A stretch of 64,000 bases of DNA, from contig JAQTRS010000003.1 in NCBI GenBank assembly GCA_028711705.1, positions 109,966-173,965 on the forward strand, read 5' to 3'. Position 1 is the stretch's first letter; every line of letters starts with the position of its first letter. Positions 2,287-47,970 of this stretch are shown here, in pieces. Both the position numbers and the translations under genes were made by a program. The notes beneath the pieces are model-generated. The model ran no database searches. It saw nothing but the letters and a program-made list of their open reading frames with translations, and had not been told where the DNA came from. The DNA comes from Candidatus Moraniibacteriota bacterium. GTDB taxonomy: Bacteria > Patescibacteriota > Minisyncoccia > Moranbacterales > UBA1568.

Positions 2287-3651
2287 ATGAAAAAAATACA
2301 AAAAATTATAGCTTTGTGTCTGATGTTGACTTCCTCGGTGATGCTTTCGGGCTGCGGGTTCAAGGATAATTCTCAAAAGTACGGCGTCAAGCTTGAAATT
2401 TGGGGGGTGTTTGACGATACGGATGCCTACGGTTCGATACTGAGCGATTACAAGAAACTCAATCCCTATATCACGGAAATCAAGTACAAGAAGCTCAACG
2501 TTGACACCTATAAGCAAGATCTTCTGGATGCGCTCGCCTCGGGAAAGGGCCCCGACATTTTCCTGATCCGCAATTCATGGGTACCGTCTTTTCAGGATAA
2601 GATTGTCGCAGCTCCCGCAACGTTCACCGACGAGCGAGGCTTCCGCGAGGCATTTGTCGATGTTGTGGCTAGCGATTTTATGGATGCCGACAAGAAGATC
2701 TATGGTGTGCCGCTCAGCGTCGATTCGCTCGGCCTTTATTATAATAAGGATATTTTCAATGCTGCCGGTATTCTCACGCCGCCGGCCACCTGGGAGGATT
2801 TCGCGCGTGATGCCGCCCTGCTTACCAAAGTGGATGAATTCGGCAATATCACACAGGCAGGCGCTGCTATCGGAACCGCCTATAATATCAACCGTTCCAC
2901 TGACGTGCTTTCGGCGATGATGCTTCAGGCAGGCGTCCCTTTCCATACGGACAGGAGTACCGGTATTGACTTCAAGAATGGTGAGCCGGCCCTTGAGTTT
3001 TATACGCAGTTCGCCAATACGCAGTCGCCGACCTATACCTGGAATACTCGGCAGCACTATTCAGTCGATGCGTTCTATGAAGGGCAGACTGCTATGATGG
3101 TCAATTATTCGTGGCAGTACGAGACGCTTAAGCACAAAAATGCCAAGCTCAATATCGGTGTAGCGCCACTCCCTCAATTCGCGGAGGGCACCAAAGCGAA
3201 TTATGCCAACTATTGGGGCTATGTGGTCGCTAAGAACAAGGAATTCGGACCGGAAGTGACGGATAAGACATTGCAGGACAAATTGCGCGTGCACGAAGCC
3301 TGGGAATTCTTACGCTATTTGACGATGCCCAACGGCAAGGCCATCACTTTGTATAATGCTATTACCGGTACGGCCAAGGAATTCCCGTTGGCGACCGATC
3401 CGGCTCAGGTGTATCTGTCGCAAACAAAAAAACCGGCCGCCAGGCGCGATTTGATCGAGCTTGCGCGACGCGATCTGGTGCTGGGCCCGTTCGCGGAGGG
3501 GAATATCATTGCGAAGAACTGGACGCAGGCTAACCCAGAGGCGGTGGAAACTATTTTCGCCGAGGTGATCGATTCGATCAATCGCGGCGCCGCGACCGTG
3601 CATGGCGCTTTAGGTGTAGCACAGAATCGCATAGGCTACCTGATAAAGTAG
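2287..3651 (+). CDS. ABC transporter extracellular solute-binding lipoprotein (family 1, sugar-type)
   Basis: Signal peptide with lipobox MLSGC. 454 aa, with overall similarity to sugar/oligosaccharide SBPs (DIFLIRNSW..., YGVPLSVDSLGLYYNKDIF). No permease or ATPase partner lies in the window. Confidence 0.7.
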   Translation: MKKIQKIIALCLMLTSSVMLSGCGFKDNSQKYGVKLEIWGVFDDTDAYGSILSDYKKLNPYITEIKYKKLNVDTYKQDLLDALASGKGPDIFLIRNSWVPSFQDKIVAAPATFTDERGFREAFVDVVASDFMDADKKIYGVPLSVDSLGLYYNKDIFNAAGILTPPATWEDFARDAALLTKVDEFGNITQAGAAIGTAYNINRSTDVLSAMMLQAGVPFHTDRSTGIDFKNGEPALEFYTQFANTQSPTYTWNTRQHYSVDAFYEGQTAMMVNYSWQYETLKHKNAKLNIGVAPLPQFAEGTKANYANYWGYVVAKNKEFGPEVTDKTLQDKLRVHEAWEFLRYLTMPNGKAITLYNAITGTAKEFPLATDPAQVYLSQTKKPAARRDLIELARRDLVLGPFAEGNIIAKNWTQANPEAVETIFAEVIDSINRGAATVHGALGVAQNRIGYLIK

Positions 3652-3674: not shown

Positions 3675-4586
3675 ATGGTTATGATGATACGGAAGTTTTT
3701 TGCTTCTCAAAAAGCGTATAGCGTCGTGTTTGCCAGCTTCGTTTTTTTGAGCTTTCTTTTTATGCCGAACGCGACAGATGCTGCCGGTCTTGTGCCCTGC
3801 GGAACGGACAATAATTCGCCGTGCACCCTCTGCCATTTGGTCGTCGGTATAAAGAGTCTGATCGATTGGGGATTCGGCGTGATGACATTTTTCGCTATTG
3901 CGGTTATCGTGGCGATGGGTATCGTCTATATCGTGTCAGCGGGAAATCCTTCCATGACGACGACGGCGAAGAATGGCATCAAGGCTGCTTTGATCGGATT
4001 CCTTATCATGCTCGGCAGTTGGGTGATCGTGAATTTTTTCATGCTGACGCTCGCCAATAACGGTGTGGGCCGTGCGACCAGCTGGAACACGTTCACCTGC
4101 GATACGGCCACGAAGACACAACAGATCAATCAGACGCCAGCTACGCCGGGCTCTGTGACCGGTGGCACATTGTCGTGCACGACCGGTACCTGCGCCACCA
4201 ATTCGCAAGTTTCGGCAGCGGTGCGCAATAATGCATCCGGCCTGAATCCGAATATCCTGATGTCTATCATTGACGGTGGAGAAGGATGTAATAAAGCGAG
4301 TTCACCAGCGGGGGCTTGCGGGTATTCCCAGGTGATGCCGGCGTATAGGAAAAGCGTCTGCGGTCTGACGGGAACCGATGCGGATACATGCGCGGCGATG
4401 CAGAACGATCTGCAATTGGATATCAATTGCGGGGCGAAGTTTATCGCGACCGACTTCGCGGTGAGGTGCGGACCGAGCATTACCACTATCGCATCGTGCT
4501 ATAACACGGGAAATAGAAATAATTGTGGAGAGGGAAGTCCTCCCTATTGCCAGCGCGTAACGAGTTATTATAATTCATGTCCATAG
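3675..4586 (+). CDS. VirB2/TrbC-like pilin domain fused to SLT-type lytic transglycosylase domain
   Basis: N-terminus: signal peptide plus a two-helix hairpin with YIVSAGNPSMTTTAKNGIKAALIGFLIMLGSWVIV, the same fold and motif as downstream pilin paralogs. C-terminus: EGCNKASSPAGACGYSQVMPAY, which closely matches the SLT catalytic-core motif ES...SPAGAxGLMQLMP. Confidence 0.6.
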   Translation: MVMMIRKFFASQKAYSVVFASFVFLSFLFMPNATDAAGLVPCGTDNNSPCTLCHLVVGIKSLIDWGFGVMTFFAIAVIVAMGIVYIVSAGNPSMTTTAKNGIKAALIGFLIMLGSWVIVNFFMLTLANNGVGRATSWNTFTCDTATKTQQINQTPATPGSVTGGTLSCTTGTCATNSQVSAAVRNNASGLNPNILMSIIDGGEGCNKASSPAGACGYSQVMPAYRKSVCGLTGTDADTCAAMQNDLQLDINCGAKFIATDFAVRCGPSITTIASCYNTGNRNNCGEGSPPYCQRVTSYYNSCP

Positions 4587-4605: not shown

Positions 4606-5295
4606 ATGAAAACATTACTCTTTATCCTCCTTGGCGTATTCTGCTTGAGCGCTCCTGCCCAGGCCGATGTCTTCGAATTACATTTTTCATATGATGCCAA
4701 GCAAAACACCCTCAATTTTACTGACAATCAAGACGCCGTGACGGTGAATAAGGAGAAGGATATCTCGATCGTCGAATTTTCCAAAAGCCCTTCTTCGGGT
4801 GATTTCGAATTCGCATTCATCGATGCGACCGGTTTTGAAATAGAGCGCAAAAATTTCACGCCGAAAGCCGGAAACTTCGTTGTGGAGACGCCGTATTACA
4901 GCATCGCGACCAAACTTATCGTACGTAAAATAGGTGTGGCCGAACCGATCCTTACCCGTGACATCAGCGCCTTGTCTACCTGCAATAACAATAAGATATG
5001 CGAATTCGAGAAAGGCGAGACCATCAACACCTGTCTTCCGGATTGCGGTTCCAGCAATGTGACCTATAGCGCGGAGACCAAAACGAAGCTTGAATCCTCC
5101 AACAATATCGTACGTGATGAGAAGACGGGATCCATCTTGCTGAACAATGTCAAAGTGGCAGCACCGCAACCTGAAGCGCAACTGCAAACCCCGCAGCCGA
5201 CCGCCGGTATGTCCGCAACCATGGTGGCGATTCTGAGTGCCATCGCCTTGCTAGTTTTGGGAGGCATAGGATATTTCGTTTATAAAAAGTGGTAG
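4606..5295 (+). CDS. secreted protein with C-terminal TM anchor (hypothetical)
   Basis: Signal peptide MKTLLFILLGVFCLSAPAQA, a Cys-containing beta-rich body, and a C-terminal TM helix with a KKW tail. It lies within the pilin array. Confidence 0.5.
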   Translation: MKTLLFILLGVFCLSAPAQADVFELHFSYDAKQNTLNFTDNQDAVTVNKEKDISIVEFSKSPSSGDFEFAFIDATGFEIERKNFTPKAGNFVVETPYYSIATKLIVRKIGVAEPILTRDISALSTCNNNKICEFEKGETINTCLPDCGSSNVTYSAETKTKLESSNNIVRDEKTGSILLNNVKVAAPQPEAQLQTPQPTAGMSATMVAILSAIALLVLGGIGYFVYKKW

Positions 5296-5304
5296 CACTA
5301 GGAC

Positions 5305-5583
5305 TTGTTTATGTTCATAGAAAGAGCGCAAGCGGGGGGAGTGATAGATAATGCACCGACATTTTCGGAGGTCTTTCTTAATGCGTTCATTTTTTTGTTG
5401 CAAGTCGCAGGTATCATTGGTATAATCGGAGTAGTTCTTGCCGGTGTGCTGTATCTCTTTGCCAATGGTGATTCCCGGCGCATCCGTGCTGCAAAAAATA
5501 TGCTGATAGCCATCGTGATCGGCTTCGCCATCCTTTTCGGAGCCTGGATAATCGTACAGGCCGTGAGCAGCTTTTTTTCATAG
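5305..5583 (+). CDS. minimal VirB2/TrbC-like pilin
   Basis: 92 aa consisting essentially of two hydrophobic helices separated by the loop LYLFANGDSRRIRAAKNML. This is the same core as the other paralogs (YLxSAGD...K). The start codon is uncertain. Confidence 0.45.
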   Translation: MFMFIERAQAGGVIDNAPTFSEVFLNAFIFLLQVAGIIGIIGVVLAGVLYLFANGDSRRIRAAKNMLIAIVIGFAILFGAWIIVQAVSSFFS

Positions 5584-5701
5584 GACTCACGTGCTTGGCG
5601 CATTTTTTATTGCCTTGACCGCTTGCAAAGACAATCGAAACGGCCCCAAGCACGTGTGTCTTTATAAAAATAAAAAAATAAAAGGAAAGGAGGTGAGTAA
5701 T

Positions 5702-6100
5702 ATGAAAATATCAGTAAAACATATAGCTTCGTTTACATTAGTGCTCGCTATCTTGGTGTTGCCCCAAGTTGTTTTTGGCGCAACTATCGGTCAGCAAGGA
5801 GGATGGACACAGGGTCTGACGAATGGAACAACAGGAGGTGTCTCCCAGCAGACCCCGACTACCATCGTTACCAACATCATCAACTACGCACTGGCTATCA
5901 TCGGTTTCTTGGGCGTCTTAGGATTCATCATCTCGGGTATCATGTATTTGGTATCGGCAGGTGATGAGGCTATGGCCGAGAAAGCGAAAAACAACATGGT
6001 CTACGCCATCATCGGTGTGATCGTCGCACTGTTGGGATATGTCGTTATGGCCGCTATCAGCACATTATTGTCTGCCGGTGGTGCCAACAACGGACTTTAA
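5702..6100 (+). CDS. VirB2/TrbC-like pilin paralog
   Basis: RBS aaaggaaaggagg, then ATG at 5702 (the ORF-track start at 5591 is upstream of the RBS). Signal peptide MKISVKHIASFTLVLAILVLPQVVFG, a Gly/Thr-rich variable segment, and a conserved C-terminal hairpin IISGIMYLVSAGDEAMAEKAKNNMVYAIIGVIV. Confidence 0.65.
   Translation: MKISVKHIASFTLVLAILVLPQVVFGATIGQQGGWTQGLTNGTTGGVSQQTPTTIVTNIINYALAIIGFLGVLGFIISGIMYLVSAGDEAMAEKAKNNMVYAIIGVIVALLGYVVMAAISTLLSAGGANNGL
5870..6096 (+). repeat. 227-bp segment 100% identical to 6375-6601 (3' half of pilin gene)
   Basis: By-eye comparison shows the nucleotide strings from accaacatcatcaactacgc to caacaacggact are identical in the two adjacent genes. Confidence 0.85.
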
Positions 6101-6123: not shown

Positions 6124-6154
6124 AACAGTCTCGCTATCCCGAGATTGTTTTTTG
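6124..6154 (+). terminator. rho-independent terminator
   Basis: Hairpin aacagtctcg / ctatcc / cgagattgtt, followed by a T7 run. Confidence 0.65.
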
Positions 6155-6183
6155 TTTACGCTTCCGCATTTTTTTGGTATAGT
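6155..6183 (+). promoter_or_regulatory. sigma70-like promoter (TTTACG - 17 - TGgTATAGT) for the next pilin gene
   Basis: Extended -10 tggtatagt at 6175-6183; -35 tttacg at 6155-6160; 17-bp spacer. The same module recurs at 6659-6687. Confidence 0.45.
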
Positions 6184-6221
6184 GAAAGAGTAAAAAACAA
6201 AAAGGAAAGGAGGTGTGTCTT

Positions 6222-6605
6222 ATGAAAATAACCGTAAAAAACATTGCCTCATCGGTTTTGCTACTCGTCATCATGGCTGTGCCTCAGGTTGCCTTCGGTC
6301 AGTGGGATATGGGTCAAAACCAGTCGGCAGCGACAGCCTTCGGCGTCTCGACCTCGACCCCTACCGATATCCTGACCAACATCATCAACTACGCACTGGC
6401 TATCATCGGTTTCTTGGGCGTCTTAGGATTCATCATCTCGGGTATCATGTATTTGGTATCGGCAGGTGATGAGGCTATGGCCGAGAAAGCGAAAAACAAC
6501 ATGGTCTACGCCATCATCGGTGTGATCGTCGCACTGTTGGGATATGTCGTTATGGCCGCTATCAGCACATTATTGTCTGCCGGTGGTGCCAACAACGGAC
6601 TGTAG
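6222..6605 (+). CDS. VirB2/TrbC-like pilin paralog
   Basis: RBS aaaggaaaggagg, then ATG at 6222. Signal peptide MKITVKNIASSVLLLVIMAVPQVAFG. The variable middle differs from the 5702 gene, but the C-terminal 76 aa are identical to it. Confidence 0.65.
   Translation: MKITVKNIASSVLLLVIMAVPQVAFGQWDMGQNQSAATAFGVSTSTPTDILTNIINYALAIIGFLGVLGFIISGIMYLVSAGDEAMAEKAKNNMVYAIIGVIVALLGYVVMAAISTLLSAGGANNGL
6375..6601 (+). repeat. second copy of 227-bp perfect repeat
   Basis: Identical to 5870-6096. Confidence 0.85.
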
Positions 6606-6630: not shown

Positions 6631-6660
6631 ACCCTGCTACAGGCCGGGTTGTTTTTTGTT
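6631..6660 (+). terminator. rho-independent terminator
   Basis: Hairpin aacaaccc...gggttgtt, followed by a T-run. Same architecture as the 6124-6154 terminator. Confidence 0.6.
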
Positions 6661-6687
6661 TACGCTTTTACATTTTCTTGGTATAGT
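6659..6687 (+). promoter_or_regulatory. duplicated sigma70-like promoter module (TTTACG - 17 - TGgTATAGT)
   Basis: -35 tttacg at 6659-6664; -10 tatagt at 6682-6687, preceded by TGg. The sequence gtttacgc...ttggtatagtgaaa is nearly identical to 6152-6186. Confidence 0.45.
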
Positions 6688-6736
6688 GAAATAAGTTAAG
6701 CGCACGTGGTAAATTTTAAGCAATGAAAATAAAAAT

Positions 6737-7201
6737 ATGTCCACACACCTGAAGAGCCTGATGTTTCCTTTGGTGATGATCGCGGTATTGTTTGCTCCCT
6801 TCGTCTCTTTTGCGGAGGTCTGCGGTGGCGGCACTATCGGAGGAAGCACCGGCGGAGGTATTTATGCTGGCGGTACCCTGGGGGTGGGCAGCGGCGCTTG
6901 TGGTGCCTTCGGCGGCTTGTCTTTGTGGGGCCCGACGCCGTTCGGTCTTCCTGGCGGAAGCATTTTCGGTATCGTTGCGACGGTGGTTGATTGGCTCTTG
7001 GCGCTTTTCGGCATCCTGGGCATTTTAGGCTTCATCATTTCAGGTATCATGTATCTGCTTTCAGCAGGGGATGAGAAGACGGCCGATAAGGCCAAAGCAG
7101 GACTCAAATACTCTATCATCGGTATTGTCGTCGGTCTGTCCGGTTTCGTCATTATGCAGGCGATTAACGGTCTTTTGAGCGGCATGGCAGGCGCATACTA
7201 G
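6737..7201 (+). CDS. VirB2/TrbC-like pilin paralog (Gly-rich ectodomain)
   Basis: Signal peptide, a Gly-rich variable region (GGGTIGGSTGGGIYAGGTLGVGSG), and a C-terminal hairpin IISGIMYLLSAGDEKTADKAKAGLKYSIIGIVVG. Confidence 0.6.
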   Translation: MSTHLKSLMFPLVMIAVLFAPFVSFAEVCGGGTIGGSTGGGIYAGGTLGVGSGACGAFGGLSLWGPTPFGLPGGSIFGIVATVVDWLLALFGILGILGFIISGIMYLLSAGDEKTADKAKAGLKYSIIGIVVGLSGFVIMQAINGLLSGMAGAY

Positions 7202-7242: not shown

Positions 7243-7887
7243 ATGTCGGTCACTCGAGAAAAAGCTGCATTCTTCAATCAGAGTCTCAAGGCCCTTCTAT
7301 TCGCTATCGTCGTTGCCGGTATATCGGTGGTATTTGAGCCCGTTTCTGCGGCGCCGGCTTACTGCACCTCGTCCGCAGCGCTCTATCAATGCGTGGCCCC
7401 GGGAACAAATTGCGCTTCCCTTGGATCCACCATGGTGGGTGATTCGGCCTGCGACACTGCCTGCAACGGAGGTTGGAAGTATTGCGGTTCGCAAGCACCG
7501 ACACCGCCGCCAACAGCCGCTCCTGCATCAGCGACGGGTGTCAGTTCGGCTGCAGCAGCAGGAGGGGCGACGTGCGGTGCAGGATTTTCGGCGACGGCAG
7601 GCGTGTGCTTCCCGACCGATACGGGACTTCCGGATCCTGCCGATGGTATCGCGCAGATTTTGGGAAACTTCTTCAGTTGGCTGCTGATTATCTTTGGTTT
7701 CTTGGCTGTTGGAGCCTTCGTTATTTCCGGTATACAGTACCTTGTCTCCGCCGGGGATGAGGATATGGCTAAGACGGCGAAGCGCAATATGAAATGGTCT
7801 ATCATCGGTGTGATTGTCGGGCTTTCGGGCTGGATTATCATGCAGGCCGTCGCCAATGCCCTCACCGCGCAGACGTCGATCTTCTAG
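7243..7887 (+). CDS. VirB2/TrbC-like pilin paralog (Cys-rich ectodomain)
   Basis: Signal/TM segment, an ectodomain with about 9 Cys residues, a Pro/Ala/Thr linker, and a C-terminal hairpin VISGIQYLVSAGDEDMAKTAKRNMKWSIIGVIVG. Confidence 0.6.
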   Translation: MSVTREKAAFFNQSLKALLFAIVVAGISVVFEPVSAAPAYCTSSAALYQCVAPGTNCASLGSTMVGDSACDTACNGGWKYCGSQAPTPPPTAAPASATGVSSAAAAGGATCGAGFSATAGVCFPTDTGLPDPADGIAQILGNFFSWLLIIFGFLAVGAFVISGIQYLVSAGDEDMAKTAKRNMKWSIIGVIVGLSGWIIMQAVANALTAQTSIF

Positions 7888-7923: not shown

Positions 7924-8850
7924 ATGGTAACAAGCACCTGGCAAACATTTCTTCATAAGCGAAGCGCGACATTCTTATTGGCAGTCATGGTTATTGCTAG
8001 CGGATTTGTTGGCAATACGCAAGAAGCGCAGGCTGCGATAACCAAGGCTGCCTGTGAGGCACTCGGCACCGGATACAGCTGTTTGGCGGCGAGTGATCCT
8101 GCTGCTGCCGGACGAGAGAGTGTTGATCAGTGCAATATGAACACCGGGTTTCCTATAGTGACCGGGAACTGCTATAAGCCCTTGCCGCCGCCAAGCAATA
8201 CCGGACCAGGAACAACTACAGGTTCAGGAAGCAACACGGGACCAGGAACGTCTACGGGCCCTGGTAGTAATACTAGTCCGGGAACAACTACGGGAACAAC
8301 AACTGGAACCACCGCGACTGGAACCGGTGTTACCACCATATCCTTTCAGAATCCCTTGCAGTACAATACCGTACAAGATGTGCTAGGAAGCCTACTCACC
8401 ACGCTTCAGGGCATCATCGTGATCCTGTGCATCATCTTCATCATCATCGGCGCCATCCTCTACATCACCTCTGCCGGCGATAGCAAGCGGACGTCCGCCG
8501 GGAAGCTCGCCATCACCGCCGCCCTCATCGGATTGGCCATCGCCATCGCTGCTCCGTCATTCCTCAAGGAAATCTCGAATATCCTCGGATGGAACAATAC
8601 CCCTGCCAATGTGAGCGCTTCGCTTTCGATCTCGGCCATCCTTACCAATGTGCTCAACTTCCTTTTGGGCATCGTGGGTATCATCGCGATCATCATGCTC
8701 GTCATCGGTGCTATCATGTACCTTTCGGCGGCGGGGGATGAAGACCGTATCGATACCGGTAAGAGTATTGTGAAGTATTCCATTATCGGCATTATTATCG
8801 CTTTCTCAGCCTTGCTTCTCGTCAAGCAAGTCGCCACGTTTTTCCTATAA
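7924..8850 (+). CDS. pilin paralog with two tandem VirB2/TrbC-like hairpin domains
   Basis: Cys-containing N-terminal domain, a low-complexity linker (GPGTTTGSGSNTGPGTSTGPGSNTSPGTTTGTTTGTTATGTG), and then two successive pilin cores (ILYITSAGDSKRTSAGKLAI... and IMYLSAAGDEDRIDTGKSIVKYSIIG...). Confidence 0.6.
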   Translation: MVTSTWQTFLHKRSATFLLAVMVIASGFVGNTQEAQAAITKAACEALGTGYSCLAASDPAAAGRESVDQCNMNTGFPIVTGNCYKPLPPPSNTGPGTTTGSGSNTGPGTSTGPGSNTSPGTTTGTTTGTTATGTGVTTISFQNPLQYNTVQDVLGSLLTTLQGIIVILCIIFIIIGAILYITSAGDSKRTSAGKLAITAALIGLAIAIAAPSFLKEISNILGWNNTPANVSASLSISAILTNVLNFLLGIVGIIAIIMLVIGAIMYLSAAGDEDRIDTGKSIVKYSIIGIIIAFSALLLVKQVATFFL

Positions 8851-8910: not shown

Positions 8911-8988
8911 ATATAAAAAAGCGGGCATATATACTATATATGCCCGTGTGTTACGTTGTGCAACGAACTATTGTCGCATTTACATCTT

Positions 8989-28459: not shown

Positions 28460-30175
28460 ATGCCAGAACAACAACCATCGGAAGAACTTATACCGGACGA
28501 GGTACTGTACCAGTTATTGCTTGAGACAGGATCGGTACCGCAGGCATCGCTTGATGTCGCCGCGCAGCGTGCTAAGGAGGAGCATACTTCTTTGTATGAG
28601 GCTATTTTATGGCATGATTTCGTGTCCGATGAGAAACTCTGCCGATTGGCGGCCGATTTTTTGCAGATGCCCTTCGTGCTGCTTGCGGGAATCGCCATCG
28701 AGGAAGATGTCTTGCGAACGATTCCGGAAGTGGTTGCCAAGAAAAACGCCATCATCGTTTTTCGGAAAGATACGGATGGCTTGCATATCGCGACCAAGCA
28801 GCCAGATAATGTTCAGATTATCGATTTTATACGAAGAAAGACAGGGATGTCCGTTACAGTGTATCTTTCGATGTCCCAAGATATAGCGAACGCACTCCTT
28901 TTATACGGAAAAAATATCACCAAAGCATTTGACGATATTATACACGAGAGTCTACTTGATGCGAAAGGGTCGTCGAGCGATCAGAATGCGTTGCCTATCA
29001 TCAAGATAGTAGACAATATCCTCTCGTATGCGTATCAGAACAAGTCCTCTGACGTGCATATCGAACCGCGAGAAGAAGGGTCTTTGGTGCGCTTTCGTAT
29101 CGATGGCATCTTGCATGATATCGTTACGCTTCCGCTTGAGATCCATCCGCAGATCGTGTCGCGCATAAAAGTGCTAGCAAAGCTCCGTACGGATGAACAT
29201 CAGGCGCCTCATGATGGCAAGATCCGTTTTGAATCGGAGGGTGAAGCTTTGGACATCCGTGTGTCGGTGGTGCCGGTAACGGAAGGGGAGAAAATAGTGA
29301 TGCGCCTCCTCTCGGAGCGTTCGCGTCAGTTTTCTTTGTCCAATCTCGGTTTCGGATCGAGCGATTTGGCTAAGGTGAACGAAGCCTATAACAAGCCATA
29401 CGGAACTATCCTGGTTACCGGACCGACCGGTTGTGGAAAGACTACTACGTTGTACTCCATATTGAAGCTTCTTAATAATCGCAAGGTGAATATAATGACC
29501 ATCGAGGATCCGGTGGAATATGATATGGAAGGCGTCAATCAGATTCAGGTGAATACTAAGGCGAATCTTACGTTTGCGACCGGATTGCGGAGTATTCTCC
29601 GTCAGGATCCCAACATCATTTTGGTGGGTGAAATACGTGACAAAGAAACGGCTGGTATCGCGATCAATCTGGCTATGACCGGACACCTCGTACTTTCTAC
29701 GCTGCACACCAATGATTCGGCGACAGCGGTTCCTCGTATGATCGATATGGATATCGAACCATTCCTACTCTCTTCGACTATCAATGTCATTGTCGCCCAG
29801 CGTCTCGTGAGAAAGATTCATGATGCTTGCCGTGTCAGCGAAGAGGTTTCTATTGAAGATCTGAACCAACGCTTGGGAGCTGCGCTCGTACATGAAGTAT
29901 TCGGTGATGCGAGCGAGTCTGGCAAAAGTGTGCGTCTGTACAGAGGAAAAGGATGCGATTTGTGCCATCAGACAGGATATCAGGGGCGCATCGGCGTGTT
30001 TGAGGTTATGACTATTGATGATAAGTTGCGCACCGCTATCACGAATCGCAAGGATGCGGCGACTATTGCCGATATCGCTATCGCTTCCGGGATGACGACG
30101 ATGCTTGAGGATGGTTTGGAGAAGGTAAAGCAAGGGATAACGACTTTGGATGAGGTGTTGAGGGTTATCAAATAG
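28460..30175 (+). CDS. pilB: type IV pilus assembly ATPase PilB (GspE family)
   Basis: N-terminal GspII_E domain, Walker A GPTGCGKTTT, His box, Walker B/Asp box and a tetracysteine-like motif (CDLCHQTG). 571 aa. Confidence 0.9.
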   Translation: MPEQQPSEELIPDEVLYQLLLETGSVPQASLDVAAQRAKEEHTSLYEAILWHDFVSDEKLCRLAADFLQMPFVLLAGIAIEEDVLRTIPEVVAKKNAIIVFRKDTDGLHIATKQPDNVQIIDFIRRKTGMSVTVYLSMSQDIANALLLYGKNITKAFDDIIHESLLDAKGSSSDQNALPIIKIVDNILSYAYQNKSSDVHIEPREEGSLVRFRIDGILHDIVTLPLEIHPQIVSRIKVLAKLRTDEHQAPHDGKIRFESEGEALDIRVSVVPVTEGEKIVMRLLSERSRQFSLSNLGFGSSDLAKVNEAYNKPYGTILVTGPTGCGKTTTLYSILKLLNNRKVNIMTIEDPVEYDMEGVNQIQVNTKANLTFATGLRSILRQDPNIILVGEIRDKETAGIAINLAMTGHLVLSTLHTNDSATAVPRMIDMDIEPFLLSSTINVIVAQRLVRKIHDACRVSEEVSIEDLNQRLGAALVHEVFGDASESGKSVRLYRGKGCDLCHQTGYQGRIGVFEVMTIDDKLRTAITNRKDAATIADIAIASGMTTMLEDGLEKVKQGITTLDEVLRVIK

Positions 30176-30286
30176 CAGCCGAAATGTTTAGCTTTCGATC
30201 GACGGGCGATCGAGTCCGTTTGTGGATTGTGTGATATGATGCATCGGACCGGTATTGAGAGGAGTTTCATTTTTTAACGCATATGT

Positions 30287-31345
30287 ATGACTCTTTTTTC
30301 GCGGGCGAGTTTTTTGGATATCTTGTTGTTTACAAAACACCTTTCGGTGATGGTAAAGAGCGGCATTACAGTAGCCGAGTCAGTCAAATCCCTCAAGCAT
30401 CAGGCGAAAACAGGCGCTTTCAAAAGGATTCTCGATCAAGTATCGGCCGACATCGAAAACGGCGATCCTCTCGCGAAGGCACTTGCGAAGTATCCTCAGG
30501 CTTTCAGTCATTTCTATATCAATCTTATCGCTATCGGTGAAGAGTCGGGAGTGCTTCAGGAGAATTTGGATTTCCTGTCCAAGCAGTTGAGCAAGGAATA
30601 CGCGCTTCGAAAGAAAGTACAGGGCGTGCTCCTGTATCCGGCGATCGTGCTGACGGCCGCCTTTGTGATCAGCGCCCTGGTGAGCATCTTCGTTTTGCCG
30701 AAACTTGTGAATCTTTTTGAGTCTTTCGATGTCGTTTTGCCGTTATCGACGCGTATCCTCCTATCCATCGCTCATGTCATGCAATCGCATGGAGTGATCA
30801 TATTCGTAACGATTCTTGCGGCGAGCATTTTTTTTCGGGTTTTGGCTTTCGTGCCACAGATCAGAAAATGGTATCACTGGTTATTTTTGAGTATGCCGAT
30901 TATCGGGCCATTCCTGCGAAATGTATACATTTCTTCCTCGTGTCGTGATTTGGGAATGATGCTTCAGGCGGGATTATCGATCACTCGTGCGCTGCGAGTG
31001 GAGTATGACACGATAAACAATCTCGTATTCAAGGAATATGTGAAGAGTTTGCAACTTTCTATAGCAAGGGGCGGGACTTTGTCGGGCGAATTATTGACGG
31101 GGAATTTTTCGAAGATACCGCCTTTGGTTTCGAAAATGATTGAGGTCGGAGAAGGGACCGGAAAACTCGAAGAATCGCTTCTATATCTGGGGGATTTCTT
31201 CGAAGAGGAGATTGATAATACATCGAAGAATTTTTCCACTGTTTTGGAACCGATCTTGCTTTTATGTATCGGATTGGTGGTCGCATTTGTCGCGTTGGCG
31301 ATCATATCGCCGATTTATTCATTGACGGGATCTGTCCATAGGTAA
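30287..31345 (+). CDS. pilC: type IV pilus inner-membrane platform protein PilC (GspF family)
   Basis: Two GspF-type repeats and three TM segments. 352 aa. Confidence 0.85.
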   Translation: MTLFSRASFLDILLFTKHLSVMVKSGITVAESVKSLKHQAKTGAFKRILDQVSADIENGDPLAKALAKYPQAFSHFYINLIAIGEESGVLQENLDFLSKQLSKEYALRKKVQGVLLYPAIVLTAAFVISALVSIFVLPKLVNLFESFDVVLPLSTRILLSIAHVMQSHGVIIFVTILAASIFFRVLAFVPQIRKWYHWLFLSMPIIGPFLRNVYISSSCRDLGMMLQAGLSITRALRVEYDTINNLVFKEYVKSLQLSIARGGTLSGELLTGNFSKIPPLVSKMIEVGEGTGKLEESLLYLGDFFEEEIDNTSKNFSTVLEPILLLCIGLVVAFVALAIISPIYSLTGSVHR

Positions 31346-42195: not shown

Positions 42196-45100
42196 ATGAA
42201 GGAGGAAAATCATACAAAAATGAAGAACACATATCGATTCCGGTTTCTGGCATTTCTCGCTATCTTTTTAGTGGTTGGTTTTTTTGTTTCTACTCAGGAG
42301 TATTCGTTTGCGGCGACCGGTACGAACAAGAAAATAAATTTTCAAGGAAAGGTGGTCAATAGCAACGGAACTAATGTTGCTAACGGATCATACGGCTTTA
42401 TTTTCAGCATTTATACCGTTTCAAGCGGTGGCGCGAATGTGTGGACGGAAAGCAAATCCCTGACCGTGACCGACGGTATTTTCCAGACTGACTTAGGGGA
42501 TGTTACTACGCTTCCAGGATCTATCGACTTCAATACGGACAACATTTACCTTGGTATCAATTTCAACGGTGATGGCGAGATGTCGCCACGTGTGCAATTC
42601 GATGCCGTTCCTCAGGCATTCAACGCTCAGAAAGTAGCAGGACTTACAGTAACCGACACGACGGGCACACTGACGATTCCGAATGGTAAAACCATTTCTT
42701 TCGCGGATACTTTTTCAACTTCCGGTGCTTTCGCAACGACGCTTACTGCAACCGGAACAACCACTGTGACGCTTCCGACCACCGGGACACTTGCGACGTT
42801 ATCAGGCAGTGAGATTTTGAACAACAAAACCATCGGAAGCGCAGGCCTTATTTTTTCGGGAGCGGCTACGGATATCACGACTACTTCTGGAGAATCATTG
42901 GTGATTGTTGCGGCCGGTGCAGGAACGGTAGATATTCAGGACGCCACTACCGTTGACTCGCTTACCGCGGATACGGGGGGTATTTCTATTGCCGCCGGTC
43001 AATCGTATACGGGTTCGGGCGCGGTGACGCTTTCATCAGGAGGTGCTGCCGGTCTGACGATCGATTCTGCATCAGATGTGCTTACAGTGGCCACGGGAGA
43101 CTATCTTGCACTGAGTCATTCCGGCGTTGCGAGCGCCGCGGCAGGATATATCTGGTATGATTCGGGGGATAATAAATTCAAGATCAACGAAAACGGTACG
43201 ACCAAGACGTTATGTAATCTTACAGACGGTGGCTGCGGATCGGGTGGCGCGAGCGATCTGCAGACAACGTATGGTAATGATGCTGATGGATCGAATGCTA
43301 CGATTTCACTGACGGCTGCCGATGATGGTTTGGTCTTCACTAATCCGACCTCCGGTGGTACGGATGCGAGCTCTTTCCTTGCTTATTTCAACCAGCAGAA
43401 TACGACGGCCGCTGTATCGGCAGTCGATATTACTCAGGCTTCCAATGCTTCCAATGCGGTCAATATTACAGCCAATGCTATCGATGGCGAGATAGGACTT
43501 GATATCACGGCTAACGGTCTGACGTCGGGTAAGGGTATAGATGTCTCGTCATCATCGACTGCATTTACAGGCAATCTTTCCAATATATCTTTGACAGGAT
43601 CCAGTGCTGCTAATACCGGTAATGTGCTTGCGGTGTCAAATACTGGTACGGCGAATGCTAACACCTCGTTTTTTATCAATCATCAGGCAACTGGAACTGG
43701 CAATCTCGCTATGCGCGTGGATGATCAATCAAGTGATGCGACGCCGTTCGTTATCGATGGCAATGGCAATGTCGGCATCCAAACGAGTGCGCCTACAGAT
43801 GCTCTTCAGGTGGGAAGTGCGACGAATCGTGCCAATATGACAGCTTATGGTGATATTACGGCGGAAGGATATGATGTCCAACGCAGTCTGGCCGGCATCA
43901 TTGATATCTTTGTGTATGATACGACGCGTGATGCGGATGGCGGGGAATGGCGCAACTCGATCATTTCACAGCAGATGTCTTGGGCGACGGAAACCAAAGA
44001 TGATGGTATCGGCGATGCTTGCGATATCGCAGCTGATGATCGCTGCGGCAAGTCGATTTTTCCTCGTAAGGCGATTATAGCTACTACAGCGAGCGGCCTG
44101 TATATTTTTGATGGTGCGGACAATTCGCTATGGATGAAGTTTACCCAAGCAGGTACGTATGCTTTGGGTGCAGATACGAATAATAACCCGACAGGAGTGG
44201 GTGCGCAGAATGGTGTCATAGTAGTCGGAACCAATGGCACATCGGCTACCGGTATGTACGCTTTCGATTTTAAGCAGGATGCGATGTATCGTTATGATGC
44301 AACGAATCGCGTGCAGGGTGATAAAAATATCGGCAATCGAAATTCGACGGTGTCCTACGCGACCAATGCGAATACAAATTTTGCTCTTGTGAACTCGGTT
44401 GTTAATGATGTTTCGATCGCACTCATCACTTCATCGACTGAAGGTATGATCAACACGTTGACGCTACCATTAGATAGCGCAACAAGTCCGATGCGAGGCG
44501 TGACGCTTATTGCTGCAGCGACGGATACGGGGGTTTCCGTCGTCAATACTGCCAATCAAAGAGTGTTTAGTTATTCGGAAACGACAAACGATGACTATAA
44601 TCAGGTTGTCATCACAAGCCGTGGAAGGATGTATGCGACCAATGAGACCCAGCAGCAATTAGAAGAATGGAGAAATATCGATAGGGATGTGGCATCGGAA
44701 CTCAACGGAAACCCGGATCGATTCTATGATCAGACTGTCGGACGATCACCTATTACAACAGGAACGGCACCGACTATTTCCACTTCGCCCGGAACCCTTG
44801 CCGTTATCGAACGAAACTCAGCTGCTCGCGAATCAGCTGCTACAACCCTTCTTGAGACTGGTGATATCGTTTTTGTCGGTACGGATCAGGGTTTGGCCGA
44901 AGTGCATACTTCGGGAGGAAGCCTTGTTGGCGCCGCATGGTCCAAAATAACAACTTCGACGGTAGCGACTCCGTATATGGTCGGCGCTGCACGCTCAGTC
45001 TATCTTTTTGAGGAGGCTGCCGGTTCGACGGTCGCAGCAAGTTCTATCGGTGCGGCCGGTACGACCAATAACCCACTTAGATCAGCAGTGACAGGAACTG

Positions 45101-47970
45101 CCCCGACATTTGGTGGCGACGGTATTCGGGGAGTGAGTGTCAATTTCAATAACAATTCTTATTTATGTTCAGACGCGAACTCGGATGGTACGTGTGATGC
45201 GGATGCTGACTTCAATGCTGGTACGGTGAGTTTCACCGTTTCTTTATGGTTCAAGCATTCGACTACGGCAGCAGCCGATACGTTGTTCGAACGATGTTAT
45301 ACTCCCGTGGCGGCAACAGCGGCCGTCGGGTGTATATATGCCGGAATGCATACGACCGGGCAGATCCGTTTCGCTATCGATAGCCTTACGACGTGGACGT
45401 ATAACACTACCTATGATGACACTATTCTTTCGACTGCAACCTATAATGATAACCAATGGCATCATGCTGTGTTCACTAATACTGACACGGATATCTGTAT
45501 GTATATCGATGGGAAGCAGGCAGTAGCGTGCGACAGCACTATTGCAGCTACCGCGACAATGGATGCTTCGCAGGTATTGACGGTCGGAGGGTCGTGTGCT
45601 GGCGCGAACTGTGTGACGGGTGCGAACTTTTGGGATGGATCGATTGATGAGCTCGTGTGGAGTTCGAACGGTGGTACGACAAATGATGGATTAGCAGCGC
45701 AAAGCGCCAACAAACTTTATTTGGATGGTCGGGCCCACATGATACGGCCTTCTGATACGGTGGTTGATGCCACAACTTTTTCATCGACTACTATAGGGGA
45801 TTCCGCAGAAAATTATGTTCCAGGGTCGTTCGTGGGACTGGTTGTGGAGTTGAACGGTGGAACCGGCGCCGGACAAACGAGAACGATTATTTCTAACGAT
45901 GCGACTACCTTTACTGTGTATCCGGCATTCACGACTGTGCCCGATGCTACGACTGACTATCAGGTAAGTCCCGCGAAGCTGTATGGAGTGAACGGGGTTA
46001 CGGCTATTTCAGCGGATATGCCGACCAATCTCAACAAGATCCGCAAGGTCTATGTGGGAACGAGTAATGGATCGGATGGCGGAGGCATCAGTGTCTTTAC
46101 CAATGCCGGCGCTGGTTCAATTAAGACGGATGTGATTCATTCGGATGCCGGTTATCCAGCGGATGATTTCGGTTCGACGTGGTCAGGAACAGATGCTGAC
46201 GATATTAGCGCTATCGCTTCCTATTCCGATACGGTAGCCTTCGGTTCTGGTGCATTTTTGCGAGCGAAACGAAATGAAGTCAGTTTGAAGCAGCTTCAGT
46301 TAGATACTATAGGAGGGCTTGAAGATATTCGTCAAGAATTGGTCTCCAAACAGCTCTTCGGATCGACTCAGGACGTACTTGGTTTGGGTCAGGGAGCCGA
46401 CCTTGCAGAGCGTTATTATTCTGATGAATCTCTGATGGCGGGCACTATCATTTCTATAGATCCATCGCTTGATAATGGCGTTAAAAAGTCGACAGGGGCG
46501 TATCAGAAAGATATGCTCGGCGTTGTTGCTACCAAGCCAGGAATCACTTTGGGATCGGTACAAGATAACGCTTATCCTGTGGCTCTTGTTGGACGAGTGC
46601 CTGTTCTTGTGACGAATGAATCGGGGCAGATCTATGCAGGGGATAGGATAACTTCTTCTTCGGTTCCAGGCTATGGTATGCTTGCTATCAAAGCGGGGAG
46701 AGTGGCCGGAACCGTACTCGAGGATGCTTCGGGTTGGGATACCTGTCCTGCCGGAGTGATCACCGATGGACGAAATATCAAGTGCACAAGCGTGATGGTT
46801 TTTGTCAATCTTACGGATTATAACGGTCGATCGATCGATGTCGCGATGAAAGAGCACGCTCAGCAGCAAGCTCTTACCGGTGGCAATATCGATGGTTTGC
46901 AAGTGGACGGGTCAGTGGATACCGCGGTTCTTCCTGGCGACGAGGCTAATACCAATGGCGTCATCACTATTCTCAATACAGCTAGCAATGATCAGGATTT
47001 TTCGAGGCAGCAGCAAATACTATCCTTTTTGAATGATCTTAAAGAGGAACAAGCGAAATTTTCGCAGCAATCATCGGAGATATTTACCGATCAATTGTAT
47101 GCTGCGGACGGCGTCGTTACCCCGCAGTTGGTTGCAGATCTTATCATCGCCAAGCATATCAAGGCGGATTCGATAGAAGGTTTGGAGGTGTTTACGGATA
47201 AAATCGGCAGTCTTTCCGATCGCATCACGAATCAGGACAAGGACGTGACGACGCAGCAGCTTACGGCCGGAGATGCTGAAATCGGTTCATTGGCACTCGA
47301 AAGCGCGAAGGTGTCGATGAATATGGATGTCGCCGGCAAGCTTAAGGTGGGAGGCTTGATTGTCAGTGACAGTGCCACATTCAAGAATGATACTTTGTTC
47401 AATAAACTCGTTTCATTTATCGGAAAGGTTGTCTTCAAGAGCGATGTCGCTTTTGAAAAAACACCGACCTTTGGTAAGGATACGGCCGGATTCGCCAAGA
47501 TTGCCAAGGGTGCCGATCGGGTGGAAATCGTGTTTGGAACCGTGTATGAGAGGACGCCGATCGTGCAGGCGATGATGGTTTTCGATGATGAAAAGGCACT
47601 CGATACCGATGCGTCCGATGCGAATTCGGGCAATGATTCCGCGCCAGCCGTTTCCGGAGCGTCTTCTTCCAAAGAAAAAGATACGATCCAAAGACAATTG
47701 CTTGCCAAAAACTATTCGTACTTCGTGGTCAATCGAACTAAAAAGGGCTTCACCATCATTCTCAATAAACCGGCCGATGAAGACCTTGATTTTTCTTGGG
47801 TAGCTATCGCCGTGGCTGACGCGCAGACATTTGAAAGCAAAAAACCTGAACCTGTCGCAGACCCATCGGTTTCGATTCCTGCGATCACTCCTACGGTTTC
47901 GGAAAAAACTAGTATTCCTTTGATCACAGCGCCTACGACATCTCCTACGCCTATCGCGCCGACTTTGTAA
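42196..47970 (+). CDS. giant secreted protein (1924 aa) with LamG/concanavalin-A-like lectin domain and Thr/Gly-rich beta-repeat regions
   Basis: Signal peptide (FLAFLAIFLVVGFFVSTQEYSFAATG). Long T/G/A/S-rich repeats. LamG-like block (VSLWFKHSTT...NQWHHAVFT...DGSIDELVWSS). The likely start is ATG 42220 (MKNTYRF) after the AGGAGG. Confidence 0.75.
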   Translation: MKEENHTKMKNTYRFRFLAFLAIFLVVGFFVSTQEYSFAATGTNKKINFQGKVVNSNGTNVANGSYGFIFSIYTVSSGGANVWTESKSLTVTDGIFQTDLGDVTTLPGSIDFNTDNIYLGINFNGDGEMSPRVQFDAVPQAFNAQKVAGLTVTDTTGTLTIPNGKTISFADTFSTSGAFATTLTATGTTTVTLPTTGTLATLSGSEILNNKTIGSAGLIFSGAATDITTTSGESLVIVAAGAGTVDIQDATTVDSLTADTGGISIAAGQSYTGSGAVTLSSGGAAGLTIDSASDVLTVATGDYLALSHSGVASAAAGYIWYDSGDNKFKINENGTTKTLCNLTDGGCGSGGASDLQTTYGNDADGSNATISLTAADDGLVFTNPTSGGTDASSFLAYFNQQNTTAAVSAVDITQASNASNAVNITANAIDGEIGLDITANGLTSGKGIDVSSSSTAFTGNLSNISLTGSSAANTGNVLAVSNTGTANANTSFFINHQATGTGNLAMRVDDQSSDATPFVIDGNGNVGIQTSAPTDALQVGSATNRANMTAYGDITAEGYDVQRSLAGIIDIFVYDTTRDADGGEWRNSIISQQMSWATETKDDGIGDACDIAADDRCGKSIFPRKAIIATTASGLYIFDGADNSLWMKFTQAGTYALGADTNNNPTGVGAQNGVIVVGTNGTSATGMYAFDFKQDAMYRYDATNRVQGDKNIGNRNSTVSYATNANTNFALVNSVVNDVSIALITSSTEGMINTLTLPLDSATSPMRGVTLIAAATDTGVSVVNTANQRVFSYSETTNDDYNQVVITSRGRMYATNETQQQLEEWRNIDRDVASELNGNPDRFYDQTVGRSPITTGTAPTISTSPGTLAVIERNSAARESAATTLLETGDIVFVGTDQGLAEVHTSGGSLVGAAWSKITTSTVATPYMVGAARSVYLFEEAAGSTVAASSIGAAGTTNNPLRSAVTGTAPTFGGDGIRGVSVNFNNNSYLCSDANSDGTCDADADFNAGTVSFTVSLWFKHSTTAAADTLFERCYTPVAATAAVGCIYAGMHTTGQIRFAIDSLTTWTYNTTYDDTILSTATYNDNQWHHAVFTNTDTDICMYIDGKQAVACDSTIAATATMDASQVLTVGGSCAGANCVTGANFWDGSIDELVWSSNGGTTNDGLAAQSANKLYLDGRAHMIRPSDTVVDATTFSSTTIGDSAENYVPGSFVGLVVELNGGTGAGQTRTIISNDATTFTVYPAFTTVPDATTDYQVSPAKLYGVNGVTAISADMPTNLNKIRKVYVGTSNGSDGGGISVFTNAGAGSIKTDVIHSDAGYPADDFGSTWSGTDADDISAIASYSDTVAFGSGAFLRAKRNEVSLKQLQLDTIGGLEDIRQELVSKQLFGSTQDVLGLGQGADLAERYYSDESLMAGTIISIDPSLDNGVKKSTGAYQKDMLGVVATKPGITLGSVQDNAYPVALVGRVPVLVTNESGQIYAGDRITSSSVPGYGMLAIKAGRVAGTVLEDASGWDTCPAGVITDGRNIKCTSVMVFVNLTDYNGRSIDVAMKEHAQQQALTGGNIDGLQVDGSVDTAVLPGDEANTNGVITILNTASNDQDFSRQQQILSFLNDLKEEQAKFSQQSSEIFTDQLYAADGVVTPQLVADLIIAKHIKADSIEGLEVFTDKIGSLSDRITNQDKDVTTQQLTAGDAEIGSLALESAKVSMNMDVAGKLKVGGLIVSDSATFKNDTLFNKLVSFIGKVVFKSDVAFEKTPTFGKDTAGFAKIAKGADRVEIVFGTVYERTPIVQAMMVFDDEKALDTDASDANSGNDSAPAVSGASSSKEKDTIQRQLLAKNYSYFVVNRTKKGFTIILNKPADEDLDFSWVAIAVADAQTFESKKPEPVADPSVSIPAITPTVSEKTSIPLITAPTTSPTPIAPTL

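Follow-up and report, generated by a model that had tools for sequence, protein, structure and literature searches.

The fusion gene and its neighborhood

The window analyzed here is a 64-kb stretch of DNA from Candidatus Moranbacteria (Patescibacteria). On its plus strand, positions 3675 to 4586 form a single unbroken frame of 303 aa plus a stop codon, in which a pilin hairpin is followed by a domain with the fold of lysozymes and lytic transglycosylases (pilin-LT). The protein is deposited at NCBI as MDD5083927.1, annotated as "pilin [Candidatus Moranbacteria bacterium]" on a 176,858-bp contig. That entry starts at a later ATG (M30) and is 274 aa long, and the signal peptide is thereby lost; homologues back the long start of 303 aa over the NCBI start at M30.

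VirB2-type pilins are small structural subunits, and the N-terminal half of pilin-LT follows their plan of a signal peptide, two hydrophobic helices, and a short basic loop. The signal peptide (positions 3675 to 3785, plus strand) spans aa 1 to 37, with a hydrophobic core at about aa 13 to 30 and the ending ...ATDAAG. The mature N terminus carries the cysteine motif GLVPCG...PCTLCH (positions 3786 to 3839; C42, C50, and C53), which is the mark of a lineage of "carrier pilins" bearing lysozyme-like domains. It is followed by the VirB2-type hairpin (positions 3840 to 4058), consisting of TM1, an SAGN...AK loop with an invariant lysine (K99), and TM2. Kyte-Doolittle analysis revealed three hydrophobic segments, namely, the signal peptide (∼13 to 30), TM1 (∼61 to 87), and TM2 (∼100 to 128), and the AF2 model places the helices of the hairpin at aa 52 to 87 and 92 to 131. 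The Pfam family PF18895 (T4SS_pilin) matched aa 60 to 122 with an E value of 6e-6 and 26.6 bits, a score equal to its gathering score of 26.6. The NCBIfam model NF045849 (Mbov_0395 family pilin-like conjugal transfer protein) scored 23.6 bits, under its cutoff of 40. The pilin core can be aligned with those of six paralogues encoded downstream, and Y85, G90, K99, I107, and G108 are invariant across all seven genes.

The hairpin is connected to the C-terminal domain by a linker (aa 129 to 167; positions 4059 to 4175) that forms a short beta-hairpin at aa 133 to 141, with a conserved W..F.C.T pattern including C142, and then runs into a disordered Thr/Gln/Pro stretch (AF2 pLDDT of <50 at aa 146 to 159). 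The C-terminal domain itself (positions 4176 to 4583, plus strand) is a disulfide-rich domain of 136 aa (aa 168 to 303) with the GH23, or family-1 lytic transglycosylase (LT), fold. Twelve of the 16 cysteines of the protein lie within aa 168 to 302, and most of these 12 are invariant. An earlier note on this DNA had described one open reading frame in which a signal and a two-helix core like that of the paralogues precede a cysteine-rich C-terminal part, and each element of that description is borne out by the features above.

The earlier note had also raised the concern that the two halves might have been joined by a chimeric assembly or a frameshift. In an independent (Logan) assembly, the corresponding protein of 301 aa shows 100% identity through this junction. 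The two halves are also colinear in about 40 full-length homologues (30 to 69% identity) from separate contigs, one of them in a complete 1.1-Mb genome (CP064974.1). Because the fusion is conserved in this way, the suspicion that a pilin gene was artificially fused to a separate SLT gene fails, and we consider the chance of such an artifact to be vanishingly small. Taken together, these data show that a VirB2/TrbC-type pilin hairpin and a lysozyme-like domain of the GH23 fold are truly fused in one ORF. We regard the gene as genuine and conserved and its product as a VirB2-like "carrier" pilin found in Candidatus Moranbacteria (Patescibacteria).

Pilin-LT is the first of seven same-strand PF18895 genes between positions 3675 and 8850, whose pilin cores share only 20 to 30% mutual identity. 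The other six lie at positions 5305 to 5583, 5591 to 6100, 6213 to 6605, 6737 to 7201, 7243 to 7887, and 7924 to 8850, all on the plus strand, and the intergenic gaps in the array range from 7 to 131 nt. A single nonpilin gene interrupts the series directly after its first member (positions 4606 to 5295, plus strand). This partner gene encodes a 229-aa protein with a signal peptide, four invariant cysteines, and a C-terminal TM anchor, and it showed no family match. It directly follows pilin-LT in loci L001 to L004; its relatives are 195 to 240 aa long, share 30 to 36% identity across loci, and keep the signal peptide, the four invariant cysteines, and, in most cases, the C-terminal TM anchor. 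Upstream, a gene for a lipoprotein of the SBP_bac_1 type, a carbohydrate-type solute-binding protein, ends 23 nt before pilin-LT (positions 2287 to 3651, plus strand). No permease gene was found beside it. Just after the last pilin gene, a strong 11-bp hairpin terminator with a T-run (positions 8922 to 8946, scored on the minus strand) likely marks the end of the codirectional gene block.

The order methyltransferase, SBP_bac_1 protein, and pilin-LT recurs in four related loci (L002 to L005) at 37 to 45% protein identity, and the SBP_bac_1 gene is the conserved upstream neighbor in all four. The 195- to 240-aa protein comes next in L002 to L004, while L005 passes straight to the pilin genes. 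A full array of six to eight pilin genes is visible in L002 to L004, the loci long enough to contain one, and in L003 and L004 the array is followed, as in the window, by two reverse-strand genes and then NusA. In L005, the slot of pilin-LT is held by a pilin-SLT of the classical E-S type, so the subtype in the window is a positional orthologue that descends from a classical SLT. The surroundings in the window are those of a housekeeping region (NusA, IF2, trigger factor, and RNase Y) of flat composition. The locus is thus chromosomal and conserved in Moranbacteria; a mobile-element origin was ruled out by the housekeeping context, the conserved synteny, and the unremarkable composition.

The C-terminal domain and its displaced glutamate

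How close is the C-terminal domain to known lytic transglycosylases? Pfam SLT (PF01464) aligned with it in the correct register over profile positions 8 to 100 of 117 but at a subthreshold score (E = 0.23; 11.4 bits with a cutoff of 21.3), and only 6 of 61 aligned representatives of the subtype reached E ≤0.01 with this model. PF18896 (SLT_3) gave no match to the domain even at E values up to 10. No Pfam model captures the subtype, and the annotations of its members say no more than "pilin" or "hypothetical." A direct search of the PDB with the domain sequence returned noise alone (a TCR and an aminotransferase). Two profiles were then compared with the PDB sequences. Profile A1, built from 38 homologues of which eight are sisters with a classical E-S SLT domain, matched LtgA, Slt70, MltC, and MltE at ∼1e-4; profile A2, built from the subtype alone (27 sequences), had zero matches at E values up to 1. 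Because A1 contains classical members and A2 finds nothing, we do not count the A1 matches as independent support.

The fold assignment is carried by two other lines of evidence. In hhalign, the subtype profile matched the classical-type C-terminal domains found on the same pilin with a probability of 96.6% (E = 7e-10); Pfam SLT, in turn, recognizes these sisters at E values of 1e-8 to 6e-16. The AF2 model of aa 165 to 303 has pLDDT values of 94 to 98, and the fold predicted for the domain is the alpha-helical, lysozyme-like one of family-1 LTs, including the substrate groove. On the strength of the hhalign match to the classical sisters and the high-confidence model, we consider the predicted GH23/family-1 LT-like fold to be secure.

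Motifs II to IV of family-1 LTs, which belong to the substrate groove, have recognizable counterparts, each either invariant or kept in ≥90% of members. The equivalent of motif II (canonical G-L-M-Q) is G216-Y-S-Q219 (positions 4320 to 4331), in which G216 is invariant and Q219 is conserved in ≥90% of members. Motif III (canonical A-Y-N-A-G) corresponds to C275-Y-N-T-G279 (positions 4497 to 4511), with Y276-N277-x-G279 conserved, and the tyrosine of motif IV is Y291 (positions 4545 to 4547), where Y-C-Q-R-V aligns with D-Y-V-K-K-V of LtgA. Motif I is where the subtype departs from its relatives. A gapless alignment sets I-I-A-R-E-S-S-C-N of the classical sisters against I-I-D-G-G-E-G-C-N of the window protein, with the upstream hydrophobic pattern and the downstream cysteine both in line. 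Since this flanking pattern aligns without gaps, the classical glutamate falls on G202, which is invariant, and the classical serine falls on E203; the same correspondence was obtained with MAFFT, with HMMER against LtgA, and with hhalign. All 61 representatives carry the G202-E203 pair (positions 4278 to 4283), whose glutamate is presumed to be the catalytic acid and lies one residue after the canonical one.

We considered whether the shift could be a mere alignment artifact, and a comparison of AF2 models ruled this out. DSSP assignment of the window model gives a helix from P192 to G202, with E203 just past its end, whereas in the classical E-S-type sister P0017 the helix runs from D212 to S223 and includes the glutamate, E222. 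The helix starts P192 and D212 are equivalent, and the glutamate of the window protein comes one residue later. The variants of the subtype tell the same story. The canonical motif of Slt70-type LTs is E-S-x-W, and A-G-E-H-Y-K-Q-type variants retain an aromatic residue three positions after the glycine, as in that motif, which argues that the backbone register is unchanged. The residue after the glutamate varies (G, S, H, K, V, R, L, or C), and in four members the sequence G-G-E-S-C restores E-S at the shifted position. E203 is the sole invariant acidic residue. The displacement of the residue with the carboxylate by one position is thus real.

From the conservation pattern, we infer that E203 is the relocated catalytic acid, with a glycine helix cap vacating the ancestral site. 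Catalysis is likely, since none of the 61 representatives departs from the G-E pair; a pseudo-enzyme is possible, and it is also possible that the candidate enzyme cleaves hydrolytically, as a lysozyme, rather than nonhydrolytically. With its invariant glycine at the ancestral position, the relocated glutamate would make the subtype a natural test case for the migration of a catalytic residue in the lysozyme/LT superfamily. The earlier note had quoted the string EGCNKASSPAGACGYSQVMPAY as a near-exact match to the LT catalytic core and had staked the case on a catalytic glutamate in alignment. The string is indeed present (aa 203 to 224; positions 4281 to 4346), but "near-exact" was an overstatement in view of the Pfam SLT E value of 0.23, the empty A2 search, and a motif that reads E-G, not E-S. 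As for the glutamate, strictly it is missing, a glycine occupying the canonical position; in functional terms it is probably there, with G202-E203 invariant in 61 of 61 and motifs II to IV kept.

Distribution and relation to known systems

The subtype profile was run as an HMM exhaustively against 1.84 billion cluster representatives and retrieved only 91 proteins at E ≤1e-3, 60 of them at E ≤1e-10. With few exceptions, the domain is C-terminal in these proteins and lies ∼150 to 350 residues into the chain. PF18895 was detected at E ≤0.01 in 51 of the 61 aligned representatives, the remainder being mostly short fragments. All named members belong to Candidatus Moranbacteria/Moraniibacteriota or to the "Parcubacteria group." The carrier pilin with the cysteine motif also bears other cargo elsewhere, namely, PF01464 (SLT), PF18896 (SLT_3), and once Calx-beta, and the N-terminal halves of these pilins are 45 to 74% identical to that of the window protein. 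A word-indexed search with an SLT_3-type C-terminal domain recovered six fragments, a count that is no measure of spread. PF18895 and PF18896 are consecutive Pfam accessions, and presumably the two models were built together.

The combination of a pilin and a lysozyme-like domain is thus already present in the databases, where it has gone unremarked, and in the literature on Patescibacterial pilin arrays and on T4SS_pilin/SLT we found no description of a pilin-lysozyme fusion. What is new here is the subtype with the relocated glutamate. As a conserved VirB2-type pilin that carries an enzyme fold, it would be the first pilin of the conjugative type to be "armed." Such a protein would surprise specialists in type IV secretion systems (T4SS) and in the cell wall, although its function is deduced and its link to a T4SS is indirect.

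Several features of the window match the VirB2-like arrays described for Patescibacteria, including the PF18895 hairpin, the tandem array of seven genes, and the low identity (20 to 30%) among them. The described arrays comprise 2 to 11 pilin genes (PMC12102498, Quinonero-Coronel et al. 2025). They are essential in Southlakia epibionticum (PMC10633639, Wang et al. 2023; PMC12857230), and Patescibacteria are described as epibionts that need their pilin arrays for growth on hosts (PMC10633639; PMC12857230). A function for pilin-LT would bear on the role of these essential and unusual arrays. Unlike the described arrays, the one in the window is headed by a pilin that bears a C-terminal enzyme-fold part of ∼170 aa, and it lies far from any virB4 in the DNA examined. 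No gene for VirB3, VirB4, VirB6, or VirD4 was found in the window, 64 kb in all, or over a distance of 10 kb in loci L002 to L005; within these limits, the VirB2/TrbC-type pilins have no T4SS core genes beside them. The PilB/PilC pair of a type IV pilus at 28.4 to 31.3 kb in the window belongs to a different system. In published work on Patescibacteria, pilin genes were near virB4 in only 1,135 of 1,948 assemblies (PMC12102498). Of 17 Moranbacteria assemblies taken from Table S1 of that work, 15 are listed with VirB4, so a distant T4SS locus with VirB4 is likely to be present elsewhere in the genome.

As an enzyme, pilin-LT stands apart from both the general and the secretion-associated lytic transglycosylases. 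In contrast to Slt70, Slt, MltE/EmtA, and MltC, its glutamate comes one residue later with an invariant glycine at the canonical site, and its domain contains 12 cysteines, scores below threshold with Pfam SLT, and has no sequence match to a solved LT. VirB1 of Agrobacterium, P19, EtgA (of a T3SS), and PrgK, TraG, and CwlT of Gram-positive T4SS are separate or ordinary TM- or lipid-anchored proteins encoded inside a secretion operon; the enzyme domain in the window, unlike theirs, is covalently joined to a pilin, with no T4SS core gene nearby. VirB1 in addition has a processed C-terminal part (VirB1*), whereas the window protein has no extension after its LT domain. The label "VirB1-like" given to the protein at first reading is therefore apt as an analogy and fails as a statement of membership, there being no VirB4, VirB6, or VirD4 nearby and no VirB1*-like extension.

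The closest counterparts in architecture are the SLT_3 pilins P0058, P0073, and P0051, which likewise combine a pilin carrying the cysteine motif with a C-terminal cysteine-rich lysozyme-like domain. SLT_3 domains keep the classical A-E-S-G-G-N/G-L-F-Q-I-N core, whereas the window domain has no SLT_3 match. Pilin-LT is thus a member of neither the VirB1 family nor SLT_3. Invertebrate-type lysozyme, such as leech destabilase, is a eukaryotic secreted enzyme with no detectable sequence relationship to the window domain, and the resemblance to it probably reflects convergent disulfide stabilization of the same fold.

Possible functions of the fusion protein

What could a lysozyme-like domain do on a pilin? 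In classical type IV secretion systems, the wall is opened by a separate VirB1-type enzyme. Our preferred explanation is that pilin-LT would do this work in cis. After Sec export and cleavage of the signal peptide, the two hydrophobic helices would insert into the membrane as a hairpin, with the short lysine-containing loop in the cytoplasm. This predicted topology puts the C-terminal part outside the membrane, where the 136-residue disulfide-rich domain would be held on a flexible linker of ∼40 residues. E203, displaced by one position along the chain and with the invariant glycine in its old position, would serve as the acid catalyst. The peptidoglycan-cutting activity would in this way be physically tied to the pilin pool and, because of that tie, would act where the products of the adjacent array assemble, opening the producer's own cell wall as a VirB1 surrogate. 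This would suggest how a pilus-like structure may cross the wall without a separate VirB1, an enzyme reported to be absent from most genomes with VirB2 (PMC12102498). We judge the whole chain of steps to be about evenly poised between right and wrong.

Several observations run against a VirB1 surrogate. The canonical glutamate position is a glycine and E203 sits at the serine position; Pfam SLT stays below threshold and A2 is without PDB matches; and VirB4, VirB6, and VirD4 are absent from the window and from within 10 kb in the related loci. Nor do we know of an experiment in which a PF18895 protein formed a pilus. The heavy disulfide stabilization and the swapping of lysozyme-like domains would suit an exposed, outward role at least as well.

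Both termini of the pilin face outward in VirB2/TraA-type pili, and the main rival to the surrogate builds on an outward placement. The fusion would be incorporated into, or cap, the pilus of the array and act as a blade that cuts host or prey peptidoglycan during epibiotic attachment; by extension, muropeptides set free in this way might be taken up by the orphan sugar-type binding protein encoded next to it. The 12 mostly invariant cysteines in 136 aa are typical of enzymes in an exposed environment, and a carrier pilin that is found with at least three lysozyme-like types (the G-E type, PF01464, and PF18896), and once with Calx-beta, suggests exchangeable surface cargo. The SBP_bac_1 gene is always immediately upstream, and the epibiotic lifestyle described for Patescibacteria, with pilin arrays essential on hosts (PMC10633639; PMC12857230), would fit such a role. 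However, a VirB2-type subunit with an appendage of ∼170 aa may be unable to pack into a filament, no permease lies beside the binding protein, and the displaced catalytic residue counts here too. We consider a pilus-displayed blade against the host wall to be rather unlikely.

A fuller version, which we regard as quite unlikely, assigns a part to every conserved element of the locus. The array would build a surface filament that exposes, on its leading or on a minor subunit, a working muralytic enzyme with the relocated glutamate. With it the epibiont would cut the peptidoglycan of its host, and the SBP_bac_1 protein and the 229-aa partner would capture the muropeptides set free. If true, this would be a combined device for attachment, wall breaching, and feeding, and the first enzymatically armed VirB2-type pilus.

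The altered motif I could instead be read as a loss of activity. The domain would then be a noncatalytic wall anchor that binds glycan strands and tethers the pilin apparatus to the cell's own wall or to that of a host, consistent with the glycine at the canonical glutamate position in all members, the loss of the serine of the E-S motif, and the subthreshold Pfam SLT score. An invariant glutamate beside an invariant glycine, maintained down to ∼26 to 30% identity, looks catalytic, however, and not decayed, and the four G-G-E-S-C members restore E-S at the shifted position. We think an inert anchor very unlikely.

Finally, the protein could be a housekeeping autolysin for which the hairpin is a mere membrane anchor, the "pilins" of the array having no tie to a T4SS pilus. 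A chromosomal locus by NusA, IF2, and trigger factor, the conserved synteny, the lack of a T4SS ATPase nearby, and a PF18895 score exactly at threshold are all compatible with this reading. Yet the anchor is specifically a PF18895 hairpin with the invariant residues of the array, and its gene stands first in a pilin array in every case. We consider a generic anchor highly improbable. Elsewhere in Patescibacteria, such arrays lie inside essential T4SS loci (PMC12102498; PMC10633639; PMC12857230).

Start codon and appendages of the carrier pilin

In the public annotation, the protein that joins a pilin hairpin to a lytic-transglycosylase-fold domain (pilin-LT; MDD5083927.1, 274 aa) begins at M30 (window 3762) and thereby loses its signal peptide. 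Homologue alignments and the gene call from the independent Logan assembly (301 aa) favoured an upstream start at 3675-3684.

The pilin that carries this domain was found with other appendages among related proteins. In P0056 the same carrier pilin is followed by a C-terminal Calx-beta domain, and four proteins of 441-683 aa (P0006, P0039, P0081 and P0123) have long Cys-rich or coiled N-terminal extensions preceding the pilin. Despite these extensions, the window subtype of the lysozyme-like domain (GE type) still occupies their C-terminal end. This variety of appendages indicates that the carrier pilin is a modular display scaffold.

Genes flanking pilin-LT

We examined five related loci, and in four of them the gene immediately 3' of pilin-LT encodes a protein of ∼195-240 aa (window 4606-5295; L001 10935-11639; L002 11038-11625; L003 11624-12346; L004 11109-11771). 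This protein type, which had no family match, has a signal peptide and four invariant cysteines (window numbering: C126, C132, C143 and C147); a C-terminal transmembrane anchor is also present in the window and L001 copies. On the basis of its conserved position, the protein is likely a functional partner of pilin-LT.

The invariable upstream neighbour, in the window (2287-3651, 23-nt gap) and in L002-L005, encodes a lipoprotein SBP_bac_1 carbohydrate-type solute-binding protein. The protein gave weak MalE/UgpB/GanS-like matches, and no permease gene lies beside it. Speculatively, it could be linked to capturing muropeptides or sugars. Further upstream, a DsbD/CcdA-like thiol-disulfide membrane protein (642-1397) may be relevant to the disulfide chemistry of several Cys-rich exported proteins encoded a few genes downstream.

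Repeats in the pilin array and other surface equipment

A direct repeat of 249 nt (5851-6099 and 6356-6604, 97% identity) gives the adjacent paralogues 5591-6100 and 6213-6605 C-terminal pilin cores that are identical at the protein level, indicating a recent duplication or gene conversion within the array. Ahead of two pilin genes lies a 43-nt repeat (6145-6187 and 6649-6691), within which we noted a promoter-like TTTACG-17-TATAGT. The final array gene (7924-8850) is a single 308-aa ORF with two separate PF18895 modules, and a Gly/Thr/Pro-rich low-complexity region lies ahead of both.

Elsewhere in the window, a separate type IV pilus module (28460-31345; PilB-like T2SSE ATPase and PilC-like T2SSF) is followed by several ORFs of 320-360 aa without family matches. 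Together with a 1,924-aa protein that has a LamG/concanavalin-like domain (42196-47970), these genes represent surface equipment typical of Patescibacteria.
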